From a virus (taxonomy: Duplodnaviria; Heunggongvirae; Uroviricota; Caudoviricetes), in the IMG/VR virus record IMGVR_UViG_3300031134_000612: a DNA stretch of 46,645 nt. One strand, 5' to 3'. This document shows, in pieces, positions 9,876 to 22,044 of this stretch (position 1 is the stretch's first letter; every line of letters starts with the position of its first letter). The notes under the pieces are model-generated. The model was not told where the DNA came from, did no database searches, and was given only the letters and a program-made list of their open reading frames with translations. The translations under genes and the position numbers were made by a program.

Positions 9876-10787
9876 ATGTTTGAAATCTACCGTAATCATT
9901 GTGAAGCCAATTTTATTTTGAATACATTCAAAAATGACATTCAATTTGTGGCTTGCAAAGAAGACATACAACGTGATAGGCAAGATAGGGTTATTCAGAC
10001 TGTATACAGAGCCATCACTCCTGAAGGCGAAAGAAACCTTGAAGTTATCTTTCCATCACAACATGTGACAAAAGCAGATATCAAACATCACATAGGTACC
10101 TTATCATTTGTCAGTAAGGAACCAAAAGCTCCATGTCCTAATAAAATCAAAGAAGACAAATACCAGCTAGCGGATCTCTTTCGAAAAGTCTATTCACCCA
10201 ATCTTGATAAAGTGGTTGAACTGGTTAAATGGTTTATTGATGAAGGTGAAAAATCATCAGTTATTGATGTTGTTGAACAATACCATTATTCGAAAAAAAT
10301 TGAACAACATCTACTGGCTAATGAATATGATACTAAAATTACAATTACTGATGTTAACGTTTCTAAGGTTTACTTCAATAATATTTTGCAAAAGACTGAA
10401 AGTCATCTTAGGAAAAATTTTAAGACATCCTACATTAATGTTGATATCGTATGGTTAGTGCATTCAGACAATACTATGCATCCTTATTTTAATGTGAGAT
10501 TGCCTTATTTTGAAACCAAAAAAGTGAGTTGTATTATGCCATTGGAAGGCAGTGACAAAATCTATTTTTATTATAATAATAATGGACTTAGAATGGATTT
10601 TGTAGATACCCGAACTTTTTACGATATCGAAGAAACAAATATTCGTGCCATTTTTAAACAAATGTTCGAAAATGAAGTGAGAAATGTGCTTGTCAAAAAA
10701 CTAAAAATCAATAAATCTGAATTGAAAGATTTATCCCTTGAAGAATTAAAAGAGTATTACATTCTGGTCGAAATGACTGAAATCTAA
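9876..10787 (+). CDS. Paralogue family A, copy 1 (303 aa, unknown function)
   Basis: Shares IDIVWLVHSDNTMHPYF..RLPY and C-terminal ELKEY..LVEM..I with five downstream copies; SD GGAG. Confidence 0.8.
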   Translation: MFEIYRNHCEANFILNTFKNDIQFVACKEDIQRDRQDRVIQTVYRAITPEGERNLEVIFPSQHVTKADIKHHIGTLSFVSKEPKAPCPNKIKEDKYQLADLFRKVYSPNLDKVVELVKWFIDEGEKSSVIDVVEQYHYSKKIEQHLLANEYDTKITITDVNVSKVYFNNILQKTESHLRKNFKTSYINVDIVWLVHSDNTMHPYFNVRLPYFETKKVSCIMPLEGSDKIYFYYNNNGLRMDFVDTRTFYDIEETNIRAIFKQMFENEVRNVLVKKLKINKSELKDLSLEELKEYYILVEMTEI

Positions 10788-10810
10788 ATAATATTGAAAC
10801 TGGAGTTTTT

Positions 10811-11722
10811 ATGTCACAATCACCTTATTACAGTGCCACTCAATCATTCTTAAACCGATTTAAGGATCATTATTCATTTTTGAACTTTAATCGTTCAGAG
10901 GCGGTTGGGCTTGATAACAATCTTATTGCAACCGATTATGAATTCGAGATTGAACGATCTGAATGGAAATTTCAATTCACCTTTCGAAATAGAGAAAAGT
11001 CAAAAGAACTCAGTCAACAATATCAAACAAGTTTATCATTTCAACATCTTGGATATAGTCGTATTTTAAAAAATGAAGTCTATACATTTTGTAAAGATGT
11101 TAGCCAAAACATAAAAGAAGTGTACCAGCCCGACTTTAATATACCTATGAATGTAATCAATTGGTTTGTTGAAGAAGGCAAAAAAAACAATGCGATCCAT
11201 GAAGCTCAATTACTCTGTTATAATCCAGCATTGTACAGCCATATTGTTCGTGACAGTCAATGTCGTGAGCGAGCAAATTTTATTGAAAAAAAGGTGATGC
11301 AAATCACTCATGATACATTGGTTCAAAATGGTCAAGGATATCAAAATAGGTATTACAAAAAATCAATCATCAGAATTGAAATTGTATTCATGATTCACTC
11401 TGATAACACCATTCATCCGTATTTTAAATTAATACTGCCTTATAATGCAGATAAAAAAATCACCTGCTTATTCCCCTTTGAAAATAAAATAAAAGTTATC
11501 TTACTCGAAAAAGATAATGTGTTGAAAAAACAGTTTATTGATACCTTAACAGCATCTGTTTACAATGAGACTCAGTTTAAAACCTATTTTAATGAGTTCT
11601 TCAAAAAAGAAGTCGTAACAGGGATTGCCAAAAAACTGGAAATTGACAAATCAGAATTGGTAGATATACCAGACGATCAGTTAGATGAGTATTTGACTGT
11701 TGTAAACATGTTAAGGATTTAA
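10811..11722 (+). CDS. Paralogue family A, copy 2 (303 aa)
   Basis: IEIVFMIHSDNTIHPYFKLILPY motif; SD GGAG. Confidence 0.8.
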   Translation: MSQSPYYSATQSFLNRFKDHYSFLNFNRSEAVGLDNNLIATDYEFEIERSEWKFQFTFRNREKSKELSQQYQTSLSFQHLGYSRILKNEVYTFCKDVSQNIKEVYQPDFNIPMNVINWFVEEGKKNNAIHEAQLLCYNPALYSHIVRDSQCRERANFIEKKVMQITHDTLVQNGQGYQNRYYKKSIIRIEIVFMIHSDNTIHPYFKLILPYNADKKITCLFPFENKIKVILLEKDNVLKKQFIDTLTASVYNETQFKTYFNEFFKKEVVTGIAKKLEIDKSELVDIPDDQLDEYLTVVNMLRI

Positions 11723-11780
11723 ATAGTGGTAATCATGATTTTTTGTGATACCATTAAAAGATAAATAATAGGAGATTACT

Positions 11781-12704
11781 GTGTTTGAAAAAGGTTCCAA
11801 TCGTATAGAAATGAATAAAGTCGTTGAACAGTTTTCACCTGTCTTAAAATGTACACATTTTGAAGAAAGTGATGATCGAAATTATGCAGTCTTCAATTAC
11901 ATGGCGACGAATGACGATGGCTGGGGTATTTCTGCCTATTTTTCTGGATTTGATTTAACAACTACAACAGGACGATATTATTATCCACGCTTTGAATTTG
12001 AAAAAAATCAAGCAAAACGATTCAAACAGAAATTAAATAATTATACAGGTCAAGCTGATGATGCAATTCAAGCGGACAAGATTATGAATCACTTTCATGA
12101 TTTATATCAGCCTAACTTTGATAGAGCTTTCGAAGTGATTGATATCTTCTTGGAACAAGGCACTACTATGGGGATTTATAATAATGTTAAAAAAATGCCC
12201 CATGATAAACACAGCAGCAGTCAGTTTTATCGTTATGAAGATGACAGAGGCTATAACAGACTTTTCTTCAACAGTAAGGTATTTGCTAAAATAACCTTTA
12301 ACAATGTCTTGCAGACACTGAGATCCGGTGAAACCAAGTTCAAGAAATCTCATTTAAGTATTGATATCGTCTATTTAGTGAGTTCTGATGATACAATGAG
12401 TCCTTATTTTAAAATACGCTTACCGTATTCATCGCATAAGAAAATCAATTGCATTCTCTCATTTGATGGAGAAAAGATGTATCTCGCCAGCGAAGATGAA
12501 AATTTAAAGAAAGATTTTATTGATAACTTAACTTTATATCCAACGGATAAAGCTTCTTTGTCTTTATTCTTCAAAGAAGAATTCAAAAAGGAAATTATCA
12601 GTGTTATCGCTAAAACACTCAAAATCAAAAGGAAAGATTTAGTCAAACTCAGTGATGATGAATTAAGAAATCATTTCATACTCATAGAAATGATAAAATT
12701 GTAA
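11781..12704 (+). CDS. Paralogue family A, copy 3 (307 aa)
   Basis: IDIVYLVSSDDTMSPYFKIRLPY motif; GTG start with SD AGGAG. Confidence 0.8.
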   Translation: MFEKGSNRIEMNKVVEQFSPVLKCTHFEESDDRNYAVFNYMATNDDGWGISAYFSGFDLTTTTGRYYYPRFEFEKNQAKRFKQKLNNYTGQADDAIQADKIMNHFHDLYQPNFDRAFEVIDIFLEQGTTMGIYNNVKKMPHDKHSSSQFYRYEDDRGYNRLFFNSKVFAKITFNNVLQTLRSGETKFKKSHLSIDIVYLVSSDDTMSPYFKIRLPYSSHKKINCILSFDGEKMYLASEDENLKKDFIDNLTLYPTDKASLSLFFKEEFKKEIISVIAKTLKIKRKDLVKLSDDELRNHFILIEMIKL

Positions 12705-12775
12705 GAAAAAAACATAAAAGACTTCCAGCAAGTCTTTTTTTATGGTATACTTTTTAAATATTTTTGGAGTATATT

Positions 12776-13705
12776 ATGTTTCCTACTACTTATCCGAACC
12801 ACCTAGAAGCCAATTATATTGCCGCTTCATTCTCAAAGTTTTTTAACTTCGTTGAATTCAATGTCAACGTAACAGTTCAAGAAAAACTTAAAACCTGTGT
12901 CACCACCTATACGGCCAAAGGCAATGATAATTGGGATCTAATTATCGAATTCTGCAATGACCTTAGCACTGACGCCAGCGAGAAACAATATTCGGCTAAC
13001 ATAAAATTTCATAGATGTGGAGAACGCTCTAAAAATTATGATGACTCATTGGTAAGAGAAAGAAGAAAAAAATATAAAGATCTACTGACTTATATGACAA
13101 CGCTTTATAATCCTAATTTTGATAATATGGTTAATGTTCTACAACTATTCTTTGCTCGTGGAGTTTCTGCTGGTTTATTTAAGACACTAACAGAAAGAAA
13201 ATACCAAAAAATTATCAAATCACATTTTAAAATCAATCATTATCATGGTTCAATTCATCGGTCTGATAATAATTATGGTACCATTTCTTTTAATAATCTA
13301 ATCCAAAAAGGGACACAAGGTTACAATGGGATTTATTTTAAAGATTCATACATGAGTGTCAGTATAGAATACCTTGTCCATTCAGATAACACGGTTCATC
13401 CTTATTTTAGAATACGCATCCCCTATTCATCTACCAGAAAAGGCACTTGCATTATGCCATTGTCGGGTGAGCCAATCATTTACTTCATGCCAAATGATGA
13501 CCGCCTTAAAAAAGGTTGTATTGATCAAATGACTTCAATGTCTAATGATGAAGCTACATTAACAGCATTCTTTGATGTAGAATTTAATAAATCAGTAAAA
13601 AATGCCATCTCATCAACGTTGAATATCAGTAAATCTGAATTATCTGGTTTATCTACTGATGAGTTAAAAGAATATTTTCTTATTGTAGAAATGCTTAAAG
13701 TTTAA
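12776..13705 (+). CDS. Paralogue family A, copy 4 (309 aa)
   Basis: IEYLVHSDNTVHPYFRIRIPY motif; ATG at 12776 follows SD GGAG. Confidence 0.8.
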   Translation: MFPTTYPNHLEANYIAASFSKFFNFVEFNVNVTVQEKLKTCVTTYTAKGNDNWDLIIEFCNDLSTDASEKQYSANIKFHRCGERSKNYDDSLVRERRKKYKDLLTYMTTLYNPNFDNMVNVLQLFFARGVSAGLFKTLTERKYQKIIKSHFKINHYHGSIHRSDNNYGTISFNNLIQKGTQGYNGIYFKDSYMSVSIEYLVHSDNTVHPYFRIRIPYSSTRKGTCIMPLSGEPIIYFMPNDDRLKKGCIDQMTSMSNDEATLTAFFDVEFNKSVKNAISSTLNISKSELSGLSTDELKEYFLIVEMLKV

Positions 13706-13721
13706 TTGTCGGAGACTATGA

Positions 13722-14645
13722 ATGTTTACAACACATAAAAATTATGAAGAAGCGAATAGTATTTTAAAAATATTTAAACCAATTGTTAATTATCATAAAT
13801 ACACCGATGATCATTACAGTGCATTCAGTTCTTATTTTTCAACTAAATACGTTGCAACTTTAGATAATGAATGGCAATTGATTACACATTTTTATGGCAA
13901 AAAAGAAGGTAAGTCTCCTAGAAAACAATATGCCCCACTCGTTGAATTTCAAAAAGATACAAAAGCAAAAATGACCCAATATACTGCCACATCTAATCAG
14001 GAAAGATTAACACTAAGTCAAACAATTGCAGAATTCCTACAAACTACCTACCAGCCGGATTTTGATAGCGTTCTTAAAGTAATTGAATACTTTATAGAAG
14101 AAGGTGTAAGCTCTGGACTATTTAATCATGTAGATACAAGAGAATATAAAAAAAATATGAGTGCTCATATGCACATCAATCATTATCATGGAATTATTTC
14201 ATTATGGAATCAAAACCATTCTAATATTACTTTTAACAATGTTCTTCAAAAAGGTGCTGGACGTAATGGAAAGCATTTTAAGAAATCATTTTTGAGCGTA
14301 GATATCATATTCTTAGCCAATTCGAAAAGTGAAGTGGAGCCTTATTTCAAAATAAAGTTACCCAAATCATCAACCAGTAAAATTATTCTACTCACGCCAT
14401 TGTCAGGTGGAAATAAAATATATCAAGTCAGTAACGATGATACCTTAATCTACAAGCCTATTGATAAAATCGTTGGCATGACGATAAATCAAAAAAACTT
14501 ATCCAACTTATTTAAAGATACGCTTCAAGATGAAATCAAAAAGAGCATTTCTAAAACTTTAAAAATTAAAAAAACTGAATTAGATAAATTGTCTGCAGAA
14601 GAATTGAAAGACTATTTTGTGTTGGTAGAAATGGTTAAAATATAA
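13722..14645 (+). CDS. Paralogue family A, copy 5 (307 aa)
   Basis: VDIIFLANSKSEVEPYFKIKLP motif; SD GGAG. Confidence 0.8.
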   Translation: MFTTHKNYEEANSILKIFKPIVNYHKYTDDHYSAFSSYFSTKYVATLDNEWQLITHFYGKKEGKSPRKQYAPLVEFQKDTKAKMTQYTATSNQERLTLSQTIAEFLQTTYQPDFDSVLKVIEYFIEEGVSSGLFNHVDTREYKKNMSAHMHINHYHGIISLWNQNHSNITFNNVLQKGAGRNGKHFKKSFLSVDIIFLANSKSEVEPYFKIKLPKSSTSKIILLTPLSGGNKIYQVSNDDTLIYKPIDKIVGMTINQKNLSNLFKDTLQDEIKKSISKTLKIKKTELDKLSAEELKDYFVLVEMVKI

Positions 14646-14705
14646 TTATCTGGTACTTTCTGTCTCCATCTGTTATAATAACCGATAACTTTTGGAGACT
14701 AATTC

Positions 14706-15617
14706 ATGTTTAAACAATTCTTGAACGCCACTGAGGCTAATCATTTCGCCAAATCGTTGTCGCCATTTTTCAAATGGAAAGAATATCATGAAGAAAAACA
14801 AAACAACTATCCTAGCTTTACAGGTAAAACGATCTACAGTGCTAAAAATGAAGATCGTAGTTGGGAATTAAACATAGCTTTCAGTAATAGAGACAGAACG
14901 AACAACGGTCTGGACATGAAACACTATTATCCAGAAATTACCTTCAAGCCAAGCACCGTATCAATGACCAGTCTTATTAAAGAAAAATTAGTTAAACTGA
15001 GTGAGTTCTTAGAAACAAAGTATGCACCAGACTATGAACAAATAACAAAAATCGTTGATAGCTTTGTTGCAAAAGGTATTGAGTCAGGTCTTCTTCGTTG
15101 CGTTGCTCATAAAAAATATGAGAAAAAAATAATCACGAACTTTGGTATGAATAGATATTCAAGTCAACTCGAATTCAAAGACAAAAATATTGGAACGGTC
15201 AGCTTTAACAATATCCTGCAGAAAGGCAGTGGGAAATATTCAGACTATTTCAAAAAGTCATTTATCAATGTTGAAATAATTCATTTGGTGCAACCAGATG
15301 ATACCATACAGCCTTTTTTCATGATCAAGCTACCCTATTCAGCTAACAATAAAATAACCTGCGTAATCCCACTAAATAATGCAGACAAGTTCTATTTTGC
15401 AGCCACAGAAGAACCGTTGAAGACGGGGTATATTAGAAAACTGAATACGGTCAATATGAATACAGCCGATTTGAATGAATACTTTGGCAGGCTGTTCAGA
15501 ACAGAAGTCACAAATGTCATTGCTGAAACTTTGAAAATCAGATTGAATGATCTTTATTCATTAACAACCGAAGAATTGAAAGAACATTTCATTCTTGTCG
15601 AAATGATGAAAATTTAA
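14706..15617 (+). CDS. Paralogue family A, copy 6 (303 aa)
   Basis: VEIIHLVQPDDTIQPFFMIKLPY motif; SD GGAG. Confidence 0.8.
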   Translation: MFKQFLNATEANHFAKSLSPFFKWKEYHEEKQNNYPSFTGKTIYSAKNEDRSWELNIAFSNRDRTNNGLDMKHYYPEITFKPSTVSMTSLIKEKLVKLSEFLETKYAPDYEQITKIVDSFVAKGIESGLLRCVAHKKYEKKIITNFGMNRYSSQLEFKDKNIGTVSFNNILQKGSGKYSDYFKKSFINVEIIHLVQPDDTIQPFFMIKLPYSANNKITCVIPLNNADKFYFAATEEPLKTGYIRKLNTVNMNTADLNEYFGRLFRTEVTNVIAETLKIRLNDLYSLTTEELKEHFILVEMMKI

Positions 15618-20421: not shown

Positions 20422-20449
20422 AAAAAAAGAACAACACTAGGTTGTTCTT
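20422..20449 (-). terminator. Terminator closing the tRNA-array/endonuclease transcript
   Basis: Minus strand AAGAACAAC-loop-GTTGTTCTT followed by a T tract. Confidence 0.7.
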
Positions 20450-20847
20450 TATTTTTCTTTAATAATGTTTTCTTTACATCCAATAAAGTATTTATGTTTA
20501 TTATTCACATTTACAGCCTTTCTATTGTGAAGATCTTTTGATGGAAAAATATAATAATTACCATCACCATCTAAAATAAAAATTTCATCTACTTTTGCTG
20601 AATCAATACGTTTAGCAATTTTATTCCAAGATTGGTTACCACCAGAAGTTACTAAGCAAACTTGATAAGATACTTCATTATCCTTATATCTAGAGCTTTT
20701 GCATTCTACTTTTTTTAATACACCATCAATATCTACGATCAAATCATAATAACTTGAATGGTTAAGAGGCTTACTGACAGTATATCCGAGTGACGCATAA
20801 TAAAAAACTGCGAATGCTTCGCAGTTATCACCTTGTGCTTTATTCAT
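20449..20847 (-). CDS. PD-(D/E)XK endonuclease, group I intron-associated/homing-endonuclease-like
   Basis: G..E.....Y....GY.VSKP....YDLIVD....KKVECKS pattern; ATG at 20847 follows SD GAGG. Confidence 0.75.
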   Translation of the reverse strand: MNKAQGDNCEAFAVFYYASLGYTVSKPLNHSSYYDLIVDIDGVLKKVECKSSRYKDNEVSYQVCLVTSGGNQSWNKIAKRIDSAKVDEIFILDGDGNYYIFPSKDLHNRKAVNVNNKHKYFIGCKENIIKEK

Positions 20848-20863
20848 AAACACCTCTCTAAGA

Positions 20864-20951
20864 TGGCGGAAGCGGTGAGATTCGAACTCACGGGACTTTT
20901 ACACCCGACAGTTTTCAAGACTGTTGCCTTAAACCACTCGGCCACGCTTCC
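20864..20951 (-). tRNA. tRNA-Ser(UGA)
   Basis: Cloverleaf with anticodon arm ACAGT-CTTGAAA-ACTGT, long variable arm, TTCGAAT T-loop, G73 and encoded CCA. Confidence 0.93.
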
Positions 20952-20955
20952 ATGT

Positions 20956-21008
20956 TGGTGGGCAGCGGTTAACCATCATTACGACATAATGACAGCTCCA
21001 TACTTCCC
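20956..21008 (-). ncRNA. 53-nt tRNA-like mini-RNA (acceptor-like stem, one hairpin, ACCA end)
   Basis: GGGAAGT...GCTGCCC-ACCA (6 of 7 pairs) enclosing TCATTA/TAATGA hairpin; no D or T arm. Confidence 0.4.
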
Positions 21009-21021
21009 ATAAATCTAAATT

Positions 21022-21105
21022 TGGTGAGTGCTGATGGATTCGAACCACCGTGTCTTCCGAAGGAGGGTTACAACCTCCCGCAATCGGCCTCTATGCGAAG
21101 CACCC
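21022..21105 (-). tRNA. tRNA-Tyr(GUA), variant anticodon loop UUGUAAC
   Basis: Acceptor GGGTGCT/AGCACTC, anticodon arm GGAGG-TTGTAAC-CCTCC, T-loop TTCGAAT, ACCA. Confidence 0.88.
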
Positions 21106-21128
21106 ATAATAAAACATTTTATCTAATT

Positions 21129-21216
21129 TGGCGGAAGCTGTGGGATTCGAACTCACGGAGCTGTTACACTCGACAGTTTTCAAGACTGTTGCCTTAAACC
21201 ACTCGGCCAAGCTTCC
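21129..21216 (-). tRNA. tRNA-Ser(UGA)
   Basis: Cloverleaf, ACAGT-CTTGAAA-ACTGT, GCCA end; close paralogue of 20864-20951. Confidence 0.93.
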
Positions 21217-21237
21217 ATATACGGTTTACAACTAAAT

Positions 21238-21327
21238 TGGTGGACGCCCAAGGATTCGAACCTCACGCCAACCGACCTGTCTTATTAAGGCGTCGCTTTT
21301 ACAGAGCGATGACAAGGAAAGGCGTCC
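21238..21327 (-). tRNA. Atypical D-armless tRNA-Tyr(GUA)-like RNA with enlarged variable region
   Basis: Perfect acceptor GGACGCC/GGCGTCC-ACCA, anticodon arm TCGCT-CTGTAAA-AGCGA, T-loop TTCGAAT; only 11 nt where the D arm should be. Confidence 0.7.
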
Positions 21328-21352
21328 ATTATTCTTACTATTACATCTAATT

Positions 21353-21436
21353 TGGTAGAGAGAACTGGATTCGAACCAGTGCGTCTTTCGAGCTAAATTT
21401 ACAGTCTAGTGCCTTCATCCACTCGGCCACCTCTCC
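21353..21436 (-). tRNA. tRNA-Tyr(GUA)
   Basis: Anticodon arm CTAGA-CTGTAAA-TTTAG, D and T arms present, ACCA. Confidence 0.88.
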
Positions 21437-21459
21437 ATTGAAACAGTTTATATCTAATT

Positions 21460-21543
21460 TGGTGGTTAGTGATGGATTCGAACCACCGTGCCTTTCGGAG
21501 TAGATTTACAGTCTACCGCAATCAACCGCTCTGCCAACTAACC
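21460..21543 (-). tRNA. tRNA-Tyr(GUA)
   Basis: Acceptor GGTTAGT/ACTAACC, anticodon arm GTAGA-CTGTAAA-TCTAC, ACCA. Confidence 0.93.
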
Positions 21544-21578
21544 ATAAGGGTTTTACATCTTTTTTTTTATTAAAAAAT

Positions 21579-21666
21579 TGGAGGAAGATGTGAGATTCGA
21601 ACTCACGGAGCTGTTACACCCTTCAGTTTTCAAGACTGACGCCATCGGCCACTCGACCAATCTTCC
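21579..21666 (-). tRNA. tRNA-Ser(UGA) with U73 discriminator
   Basis: TCAGT-CTTGAAA-ACTGA, long variable arm, ends CTTCC-T-CCA. Confidence 0.9.
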
Positions 21667-21722: not shown

Positions 21723-21751
21723 ATTCTATCAACTTCTTTCGTCCTTGTCAA
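21723..21751 (-). promoter_or_regulatory. Near-consensus sigma70 promoter directly upstream of the tRNA array
   Basis: TTGACA-17 nt-TAGAAT with TG-n extended -10 and A/T-tract UP-element-like sequence upstream. Confidence 0.8.
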
Positions 21752-21801: not shown

Positions 21802-21841
21802 CATTATTTTAGGTTGAACTTAGCCCTGCCACTATGGACAT

Positions 21842-21874
21842 AAAAAAACCCTTCGAAGGTGGCCTTCAAAGGGT
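21842..21874 (-). terminator. Attenuator terminator hairpin
   Basis: ACCCTTTGAAGG-CCA-CCTTCGAAGGGT (12 bp, one G-U) followed by a 7-T tract. Confidence 0.85.
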
Positions 21875-21956
21875 CTGAGATAATTACTATCCAAGAATTC
21901 GAGGCCATAACTGACCTCTACTCTGGTCAGTTAACTAGAATATGATGAATAATAAT
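21860..21956 (-). promoter_or_regulatory. Alternative RNA structures of a putative transcription attenuator
   Basis: Antiterminator: TGGCCTCGAA (21907-21898) pairs with TTTGAAGGCCA (21870-21860). Competing structure: TAACTGACC/GGTCAGTTA hairpin, extended by the Tyr-codon tract ATTATTATTC pairing with GGATAGTAAT. Confidence 0.65.
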
Positions 21957-22015: not shown

Positions 22016-22044
22016 ATTATAACAGCCCGCTCAAAAAAATTCAA
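22016..22044 (-). promoter_or_regulatory. Sigma70 promoter of the leader transcript
   Basis: TTGAAT-17 nt-TATAAT with TGT extended -10; overlaps a CCGCTTGA/TTGAGCGG inverted repeat. Confidence 0.7.

Follow-up and report, generated by a model that had tools for sequence, protein, structure and literature searches.

The idea that phages carry transfer RNAs (tRNAs) as a counter-defence is a recent one, and the laboratory pairs that illustrate it are few: T5 and PARIS, T5 and Retron-Eco7, lambda and P2-OLD. AriB of PARIS nicks tRNA between positions 40 and 41, and the tRNA-Lys of T5 escapes it through two substitutions in the stem (PMC12409363, PMC11464382). P2-OLD cuts at 28/29 and 40/41, and the phage tRNA-Thr that escapes it owes this to changed stem pairs and a shorter stem (PMC12445682). 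RorSlfn5 cuts at 30/31 (PMC13056530). All of these sites fall within the anticodon stem. PtuAB of Retron-Eco7 depletes tRNA-Tyr, and T5-like phages win with a strongly promoted tRNA-Tyr (PMC11555353). Then there are the toxins: VapC toxins cleave tRNAs for serine at GA in the anticodon (PMC10264068), tRNA-Ser is also the target of MenT3, and the CCA end of class II tRNAs is probably that of AbiEii (bioRxiv 10.64898/2026.01.19.700257). The subject of this study is an array of tyrosine and serine tRNA genes at positions 20864-21666 of IMG/VR record IMGVR_UViG_3300031134_000612, a stretch of viral DNA (Caudoviricetes) 46,645 nucleotides long, called the window below.

I propose that this array forms one half, the tRNA half, of a private module for decoding tyrosine and serine codons, and that the anticodon stems of its tyrosine tRNAs turn over under pressure from a factor that targets them. 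Judged from the sequences, the proposal has about an even chance of being right. The stems are hypervariable; the nuclease behind them I infer.

The window is 33% G+C, and most of its proteins are without a family match. Those that do match phage families are a virion structural protein (phrog_2155), a NinI-like phosphatase and an RNase T-type exonuclease. A search for a close cultured phage of the window found none. Over 20.9 kb it is 100% identical to a contig of 1,281,823 bp in the European Nucleotide Archive (ERZ27247443, k141_1011963; locus L043, about 468.7-489.6 kb), and the contigs of relatives measure 437 kb (IMG/VR, 98% complete by CheckV), 520 kb, 604 kb, 773 kb and 1.85 Mb. I refer to what the window belongs to as a giant phage-like element. 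Sizes of this order, here those of assembled metagenomic contigs, far exceed known phages, and the gene content looks phage-like. Sequencing runs in which the sequence occurs are from phyllosphere, food-production and surface samples, some of them labelled with an organism, and RNA runs contained only a small share of its sequence words. The full tRNA and synthetase sets of the window's genome are judged from the 437 kb relative, G001.

Across the whole window, ARAGORN and the Rfam tRNA model RF00005 (gathering score 29) agree on six tRNA genes (44.7-60.7 bits), all on the minus strand and all within the array, and neither finds any other (Table 1). By both programs each is a canonical class II cloverleaf. 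Each encodes its CCA, after which comes a conserved AAUUAGAU-like trailer, and the six are read in the same direction, downstream of a TTGACA-17-TAGAAT promoter. Two CCA-ended tRNA-like RNAs complete the operon. Tyrosine identity resides in A73, G34-U35 and a long variable arm, serine identity in G73 and a long variable arm. A73 and GUA are found in all three tyrosine genes and in the larger of the tRNA-like RNAs, which is without a D arm; G73 is found in the second and third serine genes, U73 in the first.

The first-pass annotation of this DNA had counted four tRNA-Tyr(GUA) and three tRNA-Ser(UGA) genes. The serine count stands. The tyrosine count is three, since the fourth (21327-21238) is the D-armless tRNA-like RNA. 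The annotation had read the GUA-bearing stems correctly, three in tRNAs and UCGCU/AGCGA in the fourth element, and also the odd loop of the third tyrosine gene, UUGUAAC instead of CUGUAAA. Its description of each species as present in several diversified copies suits tyrosine but not serine, for the anticodon arms of Ser2 and Ser3 are identical. That there is no other isoacceptor is true of the array and of the window but not of the genome, if one goes by G001, whose 26-27 tRNAs, of about 12 specificities, are spread over several clusters.

The case for the proposal comes from comparing relatives. The arrays of eight distinct relatives contain only serine tRNAs, Tyr(GUA) tRNAs and the D-armless RNA, in an order and number that vary; restriction to two species is thus conserved for the operon and does not hold for the genome. 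Orthologue classes were defined by acceptor stem, and the ten nucleotides of the anticodon stem were compared with the rest of each molecule. Tyr(GUA) tRNAs and the D-armless RNA are taken together as GUA elements. Averaged over pairs of sequences, the difference per site amounts to 0.40 in the stem and 0.039 in the rest for Tyr1, 0.28 and 0.059 for Tyr2, 0.36 and 0.10 for Tyr3, 0.70 and 0.08 for Tyr4, and 0.36 and 0.047 for the D-armless RNA. The corresponding values for the serine genes are 0.05 and 0.043 (Ser1), 0 and 0.018 (Ser2), and 0.24 and 0.023 (Ser3). Counted by columns, 32 of 50 stem positions vary in the GUA elements against 46 of 360 elsewhere (odds ratio 12, p = 3e-14 by Fisher's test, a value that, like those that follow, overstates independence, the sequences being related and recombining). 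The Ser(UGA) genes of the same operons give 6 of 30 against 19 of 234 (p = 0.05). When GUA elements are set directly against serine genes, the stem columns differ (p = 1.8e-4) and the bodies do not differ significantly (p = 0.08).

The 26 GUA sequences contain 17 distinct stems, every one fully paired, and their loop is CUGUAAA everywhere except in the Tyr3 of the window and of relative L048, where it is UUGUAAC. Tyr1 has five different stems in six orthologues and Tyr2 three in four. The stem of Ser2 is invariant in nine sequences, and Ser3 has two stem alleles among the relatives. A tRNA that escapes a nuclease should concentrate its substitutions in the region of recognition or cleavage and keep its decoding parts. 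The tyrosine genes do this, and the serine genes do not. Seryl-tRNA synthetase (SerRS) does not read the anticodon arm of tRNA-Ser, and the serine genes share operons, genomes and divergence times with the tyrosine genes, so they serve as a control against free drift of anticodon stems. Ser1 and Ser2 have no stem excess, hence there is no general freedom of anticodon stems.

Table 1. Features of the array and its surroundings, in order of transcription (positions in the window)
Feature	Position	Strand	Identified by	Remarks
Promoter-like site P1, TTGAAT-17-TATAAT with TG	22016..22044	-	Consensus scan, 10/12	Ahead of leader frame; same arrangement in L001 and L048
Leader open reading frame MKPTFAVSYYYSSYSS, 16 codons	21931..21981	-	Read from sequence	GGAG Shine-Dalgarno; 4 Tyr and 5 Ser codons
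Intrinsic terminator-like hairpin	21846..21876	-	Terminator scan	14 pairs, then T run; between leader and array; conserved in L001 and L048
Near-consensus sigma-70 promoter P2, TTGACA-17-TAGAAT, extended TG	21723..21751	-	11/12 matches	57 nt upstream of first tRNA
tRNA-Ser(UGA) copy 1 (Ser1)	21579..21666	-	ARAGORN; Rfam 52.8 bits	U73; anticodon stem UCAGU/ACUGA
tRNA-Tyr(GUA) copy 1 (Tyr1)	21460..21543	-	ARAGORN; Rfam 57.7 bits	Stem GUAGA/UCUAC
tRNA-Tyr(GUA) copy 2 (Tyr2)	21353..21436	-	ARAGORN; Rfam 55.8 bits	Stem CUAGA/UUUAG
D-armless CCA-ended tRNA-like RNA	21238..21327	-		GUA anticodon arm, stem UCGCU/AGCGA; 27-nt variable region
tRNA-Ser(UGA) copy 2 (Ser2)	21129..21216	-	ARAGORN; Rfam 56.2 bits	G73; stem ACAGU/ACUGU
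tRNA-Tyr(GUA) copy 3 (Tyr3)	21022..21105	-	ARAGORN; Rfam 44.7 bits	Stem GGAGG/CCUCC; loop UUGUAAC; slot is a variable cassette
CCA-ended mini-RNA, 53 nt	20956..21008	-		Acceptor-like stem and 12-bp hairpin; fills last spacer
tRNA-Ser(UGA) copy 3 (Ser3)	20864..20951	-	ARAGORN; Rfam 60.7 bits	G73; stem ACAGU/ACUGU
PD-(D/E)XK (PDDEXK_5) gene	20449..20853	-	Pfam PF11645, 6e-14; PDB 2OST, E = 3.9e-6	Directly downstream of array

Close strains reveal how the stems change. Logan contigs of four runs were placed on the array. In run X8 the stretch from Ser1 to Ser2 differs from the window at 5 of 590 nt, whereas Tyr3 differs at 15 of 84: it has the normal CUGUAAA loop and a stem, GUCGG/CCGAC, that occurs elsewhere in the arrays of L055 and L061. 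The window's own Tyr3, unusual loop included, is identical at 84 of 84 positions in L048, whose Tyr1 and Tyr2 are different from those of the window. Given this sharing, the tyrosine genes behave as exchangeable alleles common to several lineages. Tyr3 is absent altogether from L030 and L001. In run X6 the D-armless RNA departs from that of the window only at two adjacent, compensated stem pairs, giving UCUGU/ACAGA.

There is a candidate agent of such exchange next to the array. The PD-(D/E)XK protein resembles 2OST, which I take to be the intron-encoded homing endonuclease I-Ssp6803I, and is probably itself a free-standing homing endonuclease that may drive the exchange of tyrosine alleles. 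Its gene is present in L030, L055, L056 and L061, absent in L001 and L060, and replaced by another gene in L031. (A terminator-like hairpin, 20826-20806, lies within its first codons.) One might then suppose that cassettes are merely shuffled, by gene conversion and by exchange between co-infecting relatives, both promoted by the endonuclease and by the tandem repeats of the array, and that mosaic arrays result with no selection at all. The 2OST-related gene that adjoins the array and is patchy among relatives, the varying order and number of tyrosine genes and the Tyr3 alleles common to several lineages all speak for this, as does the precedent of phage T4, whose SegB homing endonuclease is found within a tRNA cluster. 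Shuffling can explain presence, absence and order. It does not account for orthologous genes in which change is confined almost exclusively to ten stem nucleotides, with perfect compensation, or for the constancy of the adjacent serine genes, and I consider it improbable.

The serine genes vary in a different manner. Ser1 is identical at 86-88 of 88 nt in six relatives. The anticodon of the first serine slot is UGA in six relatives, AGA in L048 and CGA in L001, and base 34 is the sole difference in 88 nt between the Ser1 of L048 and that of the window. The last serine slot has UGA, or AGA in L001, and a GCU copy is found only in L001 and L048. (A34 is unusual in a bacterial serine tRNA.) To judge from these sequences, serine variation looks like the tuning of decoding capacity, or like avoidance of something that reads base 34, and not like a repertoire of stem variants.

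The region upstream of the array has the parts of an attenuator: a short frame with a run of regulatory codons, then an intrinsic terminator. The run in the leader peptide is SYYYSSYSS, and a Ser/Tyr run is kept in the leaders of L001 (MKTTLMTTSYYYSYYSH) and L048 (MKPTFKFSSSYYYSYSR). The Rfam model His_leader matches 21840-21948 at 29.6 bits (E = 0.016), which is below its gathering score of 49. The hexamers and spacing of P2, between the terminator and the tRNA genes, are identical in L030, L001 and L048.

The synthetases found in G001 are of a piece with the leader. Tyrosyl-tRNA synthetase (TyrRS; TIGR00234, 381 bits) is encoded 16 kb upstream of the array and SerRS (TIGR00414, 505 bits) 28 kb upstream. 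The threonyl and tryptophanyl enzymes (ThrRS, TrpRS) are encoded as well, and no methionyl enzyme (MetRS), no class IIb synthetase and no synthetase of the Ile/Leu/Val type was found in G001. The search, which covered five families, thus turned up synthetases for four amino acids only, tyrosine and serine among them. The TyrRS (L050:1411-2670, at about 243 kb) has 2 tyrosines in 419 residues; the probability of so few is 1e-7 at a usage of 5% and 3e-4 at 3%. In an alignment with a solved TyrRS (PDB 6HB5) each of the two falls on a tyrosine. Among 120 homologues of 60-100% identity, on contigs of up to 1.5 Mb, 105 have exactly two tyrosines and 13 have three. As for the other enzymes (L051, L052, L053), ThrRS has 3 threonines in 421 residues (p = 8e-10), TrpRS no tryptophan in 331, and SerRS 18 serines in 427 (p = 0.003).

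A TyrRS with two tyrosines fits a protein that is needed when tyrosine decoding fails. Translation can still complete a synthetase stripped of its own residue when the codons for that residue cannot be read. Such synthetases, together with the leaders, point to a system built for shortage, whether the shortage comes from demand or from attack; and the leader with its terminator, the consensus promoter and the two-tyrosine TyrRS, as read from sequence, point to a recurrent shortage of tyrosine decoding in particular. Upstream of tyrS in G001 (L050:1230-1400) there is again a promoter-like site, then a short frame, MKATFHFQKSFTVRY, whose final codon is for tyrosine, then a hairpin and a T run. 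This frame may be a tyrosine-sensing leader for the TyrRS.

An alternative view is that the array supplies tRNAs on demand and does nothing else. It would top up tyrosine and serine decoding for an AT-rich proteome rich in both residues, in a host with few such tRNAs, and the stem differences would be tolerated drift, as neither TyrRS nor the ribosome reads the upper stem. The proteins of the window are 5.0% tyrosine and 7.7% serine; per 1000 codons there are 36 TAT and 23 TCA, and no serine codon is used more than TCA (figures for the element's side only). The leader and terminator are of the type that senses charged tRNA, the serine sets of relatives cover more codons (CGA, GCU, UGA, AGA), and the relative has a TyrRS and a SerRS of its own. 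Stem divergence, too, is close to the synonymous rate. The view meets three difficulties. Drift should affect both species of tRNA, and the Ser(UGA) stems are nearly frozen though SerRS ignores them. The copy number of the genes does not follow codon demand: Lys, Leu, Ile and Asn are all commoner than Tyr in the window's proteins, yet the relative has single genes for Lys and Asn against two or three for Tyr. Finally, the pattern of Tyr3 in run X8, with 15 changes in 84 nt beside 5 in 590 and with alleles shared between lineages, is not that of clock-like drift. Supply with drift and nothing more is a rival to be reckoned with, and I find it somewhat unlikely.

The tRNA set of G001 as a whole bears out that the operon, not the genome, is restricted. 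It comprises five tRNAs with anticodon CAU (Met-type), five for Ser, three for Leu, two each for Thr(UGU), Gly and Pro, two or three for Tyr, single copies for Lys, Cys and Asn, a CUA suppressor and a tRNA with an anticodon loop of 8 nt. The CUA tRNA, of the amber suppressor type, is at 375947 (L005), the one with the 8-nt loop, given as 'agaa' by ARAGORN, at 389162 (L002), and the Lys(UUU) tRNA at 214974 (L009) has an apparently enlarged anticodon loop. TAA ends 47 of the 54 genes of the window and TAG ends 4.

The D-armless RNA is in some respects the strangest member of the array. It has a 7-bp acceptor stem, A73-CCA, an anticodon arm with GUA and a T arm, and an 11-nt connector takes the place of the D arm, so that it is no canonical class II tRNA. 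ARAGORN does not call it in its standard, relaxed or mitochondrial modes, and it has no Rfam tRNA match even at E <= 10. (A match to mascRNA, 14.9 bits and E = 8.7, is at chance level and was rejected.) It is conserved in all complete arrays, with four stem alleles if that of run X6 is included. In five distinct sequences 99.3% of the cells are paired, and both partners have changed in seven pairs, of which three belong to the acceptor stem and four to the anticodon stem, a level of covariation matched in none of 500 shuffles. By this covariation the element is a real structured RNA. A pseudoknot is possible between CCUGUC of the connector and GACAGG of the variable region, and two one-sided changes are compatible with it. 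The features by which TyrRS recognizes its tRNA include A73, the GUA loop and a long extra arm. The D-armless RNA retains all of them, and it could be charged, or it could be a decoy.

The smaller tRNA-like RNA, at 20956-21008, has a folding energy z of -2.67 relative to shuffled sequence. A comparison by eye with the counterpart in L030 shows compensated changes at one acceptor pair and at two neighbouring hairpin pairs, and the RNA is present in L001 and L048. L001 has in addition a spacer of about 104 nt that likewise ends in CCCACCA.

The tRNA-like RNAs suggest another adversary, a toxin that attacks class II tRNAs or CCA ends, such as the nucleotidyltransferases of the AbiE/MenT type, which the array might counter by flooding the cell with class II tRNAs and by offering the tRNA-like RNAs as decoy substrates. 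The array does consist only of tRNAs with a long variable arm, of a minihelix and of an RNA whose variable region is oversized, the last two both with CCA ends, and such toxins have the right tastes, MenT3 being specific for tRNA-Ser and AbiEii likely to prefer class II (bioRxiv 10.64898/2026.01.19.700257). The third class II tRNA of bacteria, that for leucine, lies outside the array, in another cluster in the relative, and the toxin would leave the variability specific to tyrosine stems unexplained; the decoys, moreover, are candidates by their sequence. I give this explanation little chance.

It is also conceivable that the element itself is the aggressor. It would destroy or block the tRNA-Tyr of its host, as a means of shut-off or of excluding rivals, and carry immune replacements whose stems track its own nuclease. 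A full private tyrosine channel, of tRNAs, TyrRS and leader, is what such a takeover would call for, and the tRNA nucleases of P2-OLD and PARIS are themselves borne by phages or satellites (PMC12445682, PMC11464382). Family scans of the window's proteins identified no candidate nuclease, and immunity to a single self-encoded enzyme would make several stems per genome needless. This possibility strikes me as very slight.

Three known enzymes or families were tried as the reader of the stem and set aside. The 'paired CNG' motif of P2-OLD is missing from the four GUA stems of the window and present in the three of L030, with no clear pattern across the eight arrays, and P2-OLD prefers tRNA-Thr. 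PtuAB depletes tRNA-Tyr in vivo, and neither direct cleavage nor binding is seen in vitro (PMC12819146), which gives no ground for claiming a stem determinant. Schlafen-type nucleases as class II-specific enzymes do not fit, since bacterial examples cut many tRNAs or cut at other sites (PMC13056530, PMC13462974).

Several points, besides the relatedness of the compared sequences, weigh against the proposal that a factor targets the tyrosine stem. Between the window and L030, 13 of 60 anticodon-stem positions differ, close to the 28% at four-fold degenerate sites, so the rate of stem change is about neutral and not demonstrably faster; in that comparison positive selection above the neutral rate is not demonstrable. 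The pairs that vary are mostly 27:43, 28:42 and 29:41, and these tend to be less constrained in tRNAs generally. Half of the array consists of serine copies, which are at odds with an escape repertoire. Among published enzymes none is known to read the tRNA-Tyr anticodon stem. Both the TyrRS and the SerRS come from G001 and not from the window's own genome, of which the window is the part that was searched. And the cleavage of tRNA-Tyr by PtuAB was not reproduced in vitro (PMC12819146).

Where does this leave escape and supply? The first-pass annotation had seen a repertoire for escaping nucleases that target tyrosine and serine tRNAs, rather than codon-usage compensation. Escape is supported for tyrosine by the stem excess, the compensation and the constant loops; it does not extend to serine, whose genes are conserved and differ mainly at base 34 or by the GCU copy. 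The exclusion of codon-usage compensation is not established, given proteins rich in tyrosine and serine, the prominence of TCA, the leader with its terminator and the relative's TyrRS and SerRS. Supply regulated by demand has support at least equal to that of escape, and the two are compatible.

The proposal, a private decoding module with tyrosine stems under attack, would work as follows. P2 would drive a single precursor, and the Tyr/Ser leader with its terminator would act as a switch that adds read-through when ribosomes stall at tyrosine or serine codons. Processing of this transcript would yield three tRNA-Tyr(GUA), three tRNA-Ser(UGA) and two CCA-ended tRNA-like RNAs. Charged by the element's TyrRS and SerRS, as seen in the 437 kb relative, the tRNAs would keep tyrosine and serine codons readable when the charged tRNAs of the host run short. 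The serine genes would be conserved supply genes. The tyrosine genes and the D-armless RNA would be maintained as several isodecoders whose stems, and little else, turn over fast and always with compensation, most likely because a factor of the host or of a rival element recognizes or cuts the anticodon stem of tRNA-Tyr. If copies with unlike stems are supplied in high dosage, some would always survive.

The proposal can be carried further, into territory that I regard as doubtful. The GUA genes would be a polymorphic immune-evasion locus, akin to those of antigenic variation, facing an undiscovered enzyme that reads the upper stem in the hosts of these elements of 0.4-1.9 Mb; isodecoders would be shuffled to keep ahead of it, the D-armless RNA, whose stem is equally hypervariable, would be decoy or sensor and not decode, and the tyrosine-poor TyrRS and the leader would switch the module on when tyrosine decoding collapses.

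Some observations on the surroundings of the array remain. Window positions 9876-15617 (plus strand) hold six tandem paralogous genes for proteins of 303-313 amino acids with no family match; the block is kept in L029, L043 and L044, and there are extra copies near the array of L001. In more distant relatives found through the phosphatase (L034-L038, about 60% identity) no tRNA lies within 10 kb, which does not exclude arrays elsewhere in those genomes. Searches for related loci with the PD-(D/E)XK protein as query found no relative, and those with the phosphatase or a 260-amino-acid protein found one IMG/VR contig only.

If the proposal is right, the locus is a natural, population-level signature of the conflict so far known from laboratory pairs: tyrosine tRNAs change almost nowhere but in the ten nucleotides of the stem, the part in which known defence nucleases make their cuts, beside serine neighbours that stay constant. 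It would predict a nuclease, as yet undescribed, directed at the anticodon stem of tRNA-Tyr, and would put 17 natural stem variants at hand for finding it. It would also mean that tRNA-like decoys and synthetases free of their cognate amino acid share one strategy in very large phage-like elements. If it is wrong, there is still an unusual tRNA operon, apparently attenuated by a leader and paired with a TyrRS and a SerRS encoded by the element.

The arrangement upstream of the array is like that of the his and thr leader attenuators of enterobacteria, a short frame with regulatory codons and then an intrinsic terminator. It differs in standing ahead of tRNA genes and not of biosynthetic genes, in having codons of two kinds (Tyr and Ser), and in the second, near-consensus promoter between terminator and genes. 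Phage T4 has eight different single-copy tRNAs in a cluster with the SegB homing endonuclease. The likeness lies in a tRNA cluster with a free-standing homing endonuclease embedded or adjacent, favouring inheritance or exchange; SegB is a GIY-YIG enzyme, whereas the probable homing endonuclease here is PD-(D/E)XK and like I-Ssp6803I.

For mycobacteriophage tRNAs the argument has been, as it is here, one from comparative sequence for changes that avoid host tRNases (PMC10264068). In those tRNAs the loop is what changes, whereas here the loop is constant save for positions 32 and 38 of Tyr3, the stems vary, and each genome has multiple isodecoders. Other comparable cases are the tRNA-Lys, tRNA-Thr and tRNA-Asn of T5 facing AriB of PARIS, and the phage tRNA-Thr(UGU) facing P2-OLD, which owe their resistance to substituted stem pairs close to the cut positions 28/29 and 40/41 and keep the anticodon loop; the part that varies here is the same one (PMC11464382, PMC12409363, PMC12445682). 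The amino acids there are Lys, Thr and Asn, the enzyme is known, and a single resistant copy serves for each; here Tyr would be the target, and the evidence is hypervariability in a population, not a resistance assay.

The phage tRNA is again tRNA-Tyr(GUA) in T5 and SP15 facing PtuAB of Retron-Eco7 (Ec78), where a gene behind a very strong promoter restores tyrosine decoding once the tRNA-Tyr of the host is depleted, and dosage matters (PMC11555353, PMC12819146). Against that T5-type promoter stands P2, near consensus with an extended TG (11/12) and known from its sequence alone. In T5 a single gene suffices, and over-expressed tRNA-Tyr of E. coli also rescues. The elements described here have three or four GUA genes per genome with fast-changing stems, a D-armless GUA RNA, a Tyr/Ser leader with its terminator, and a TyrRS of the element's own.

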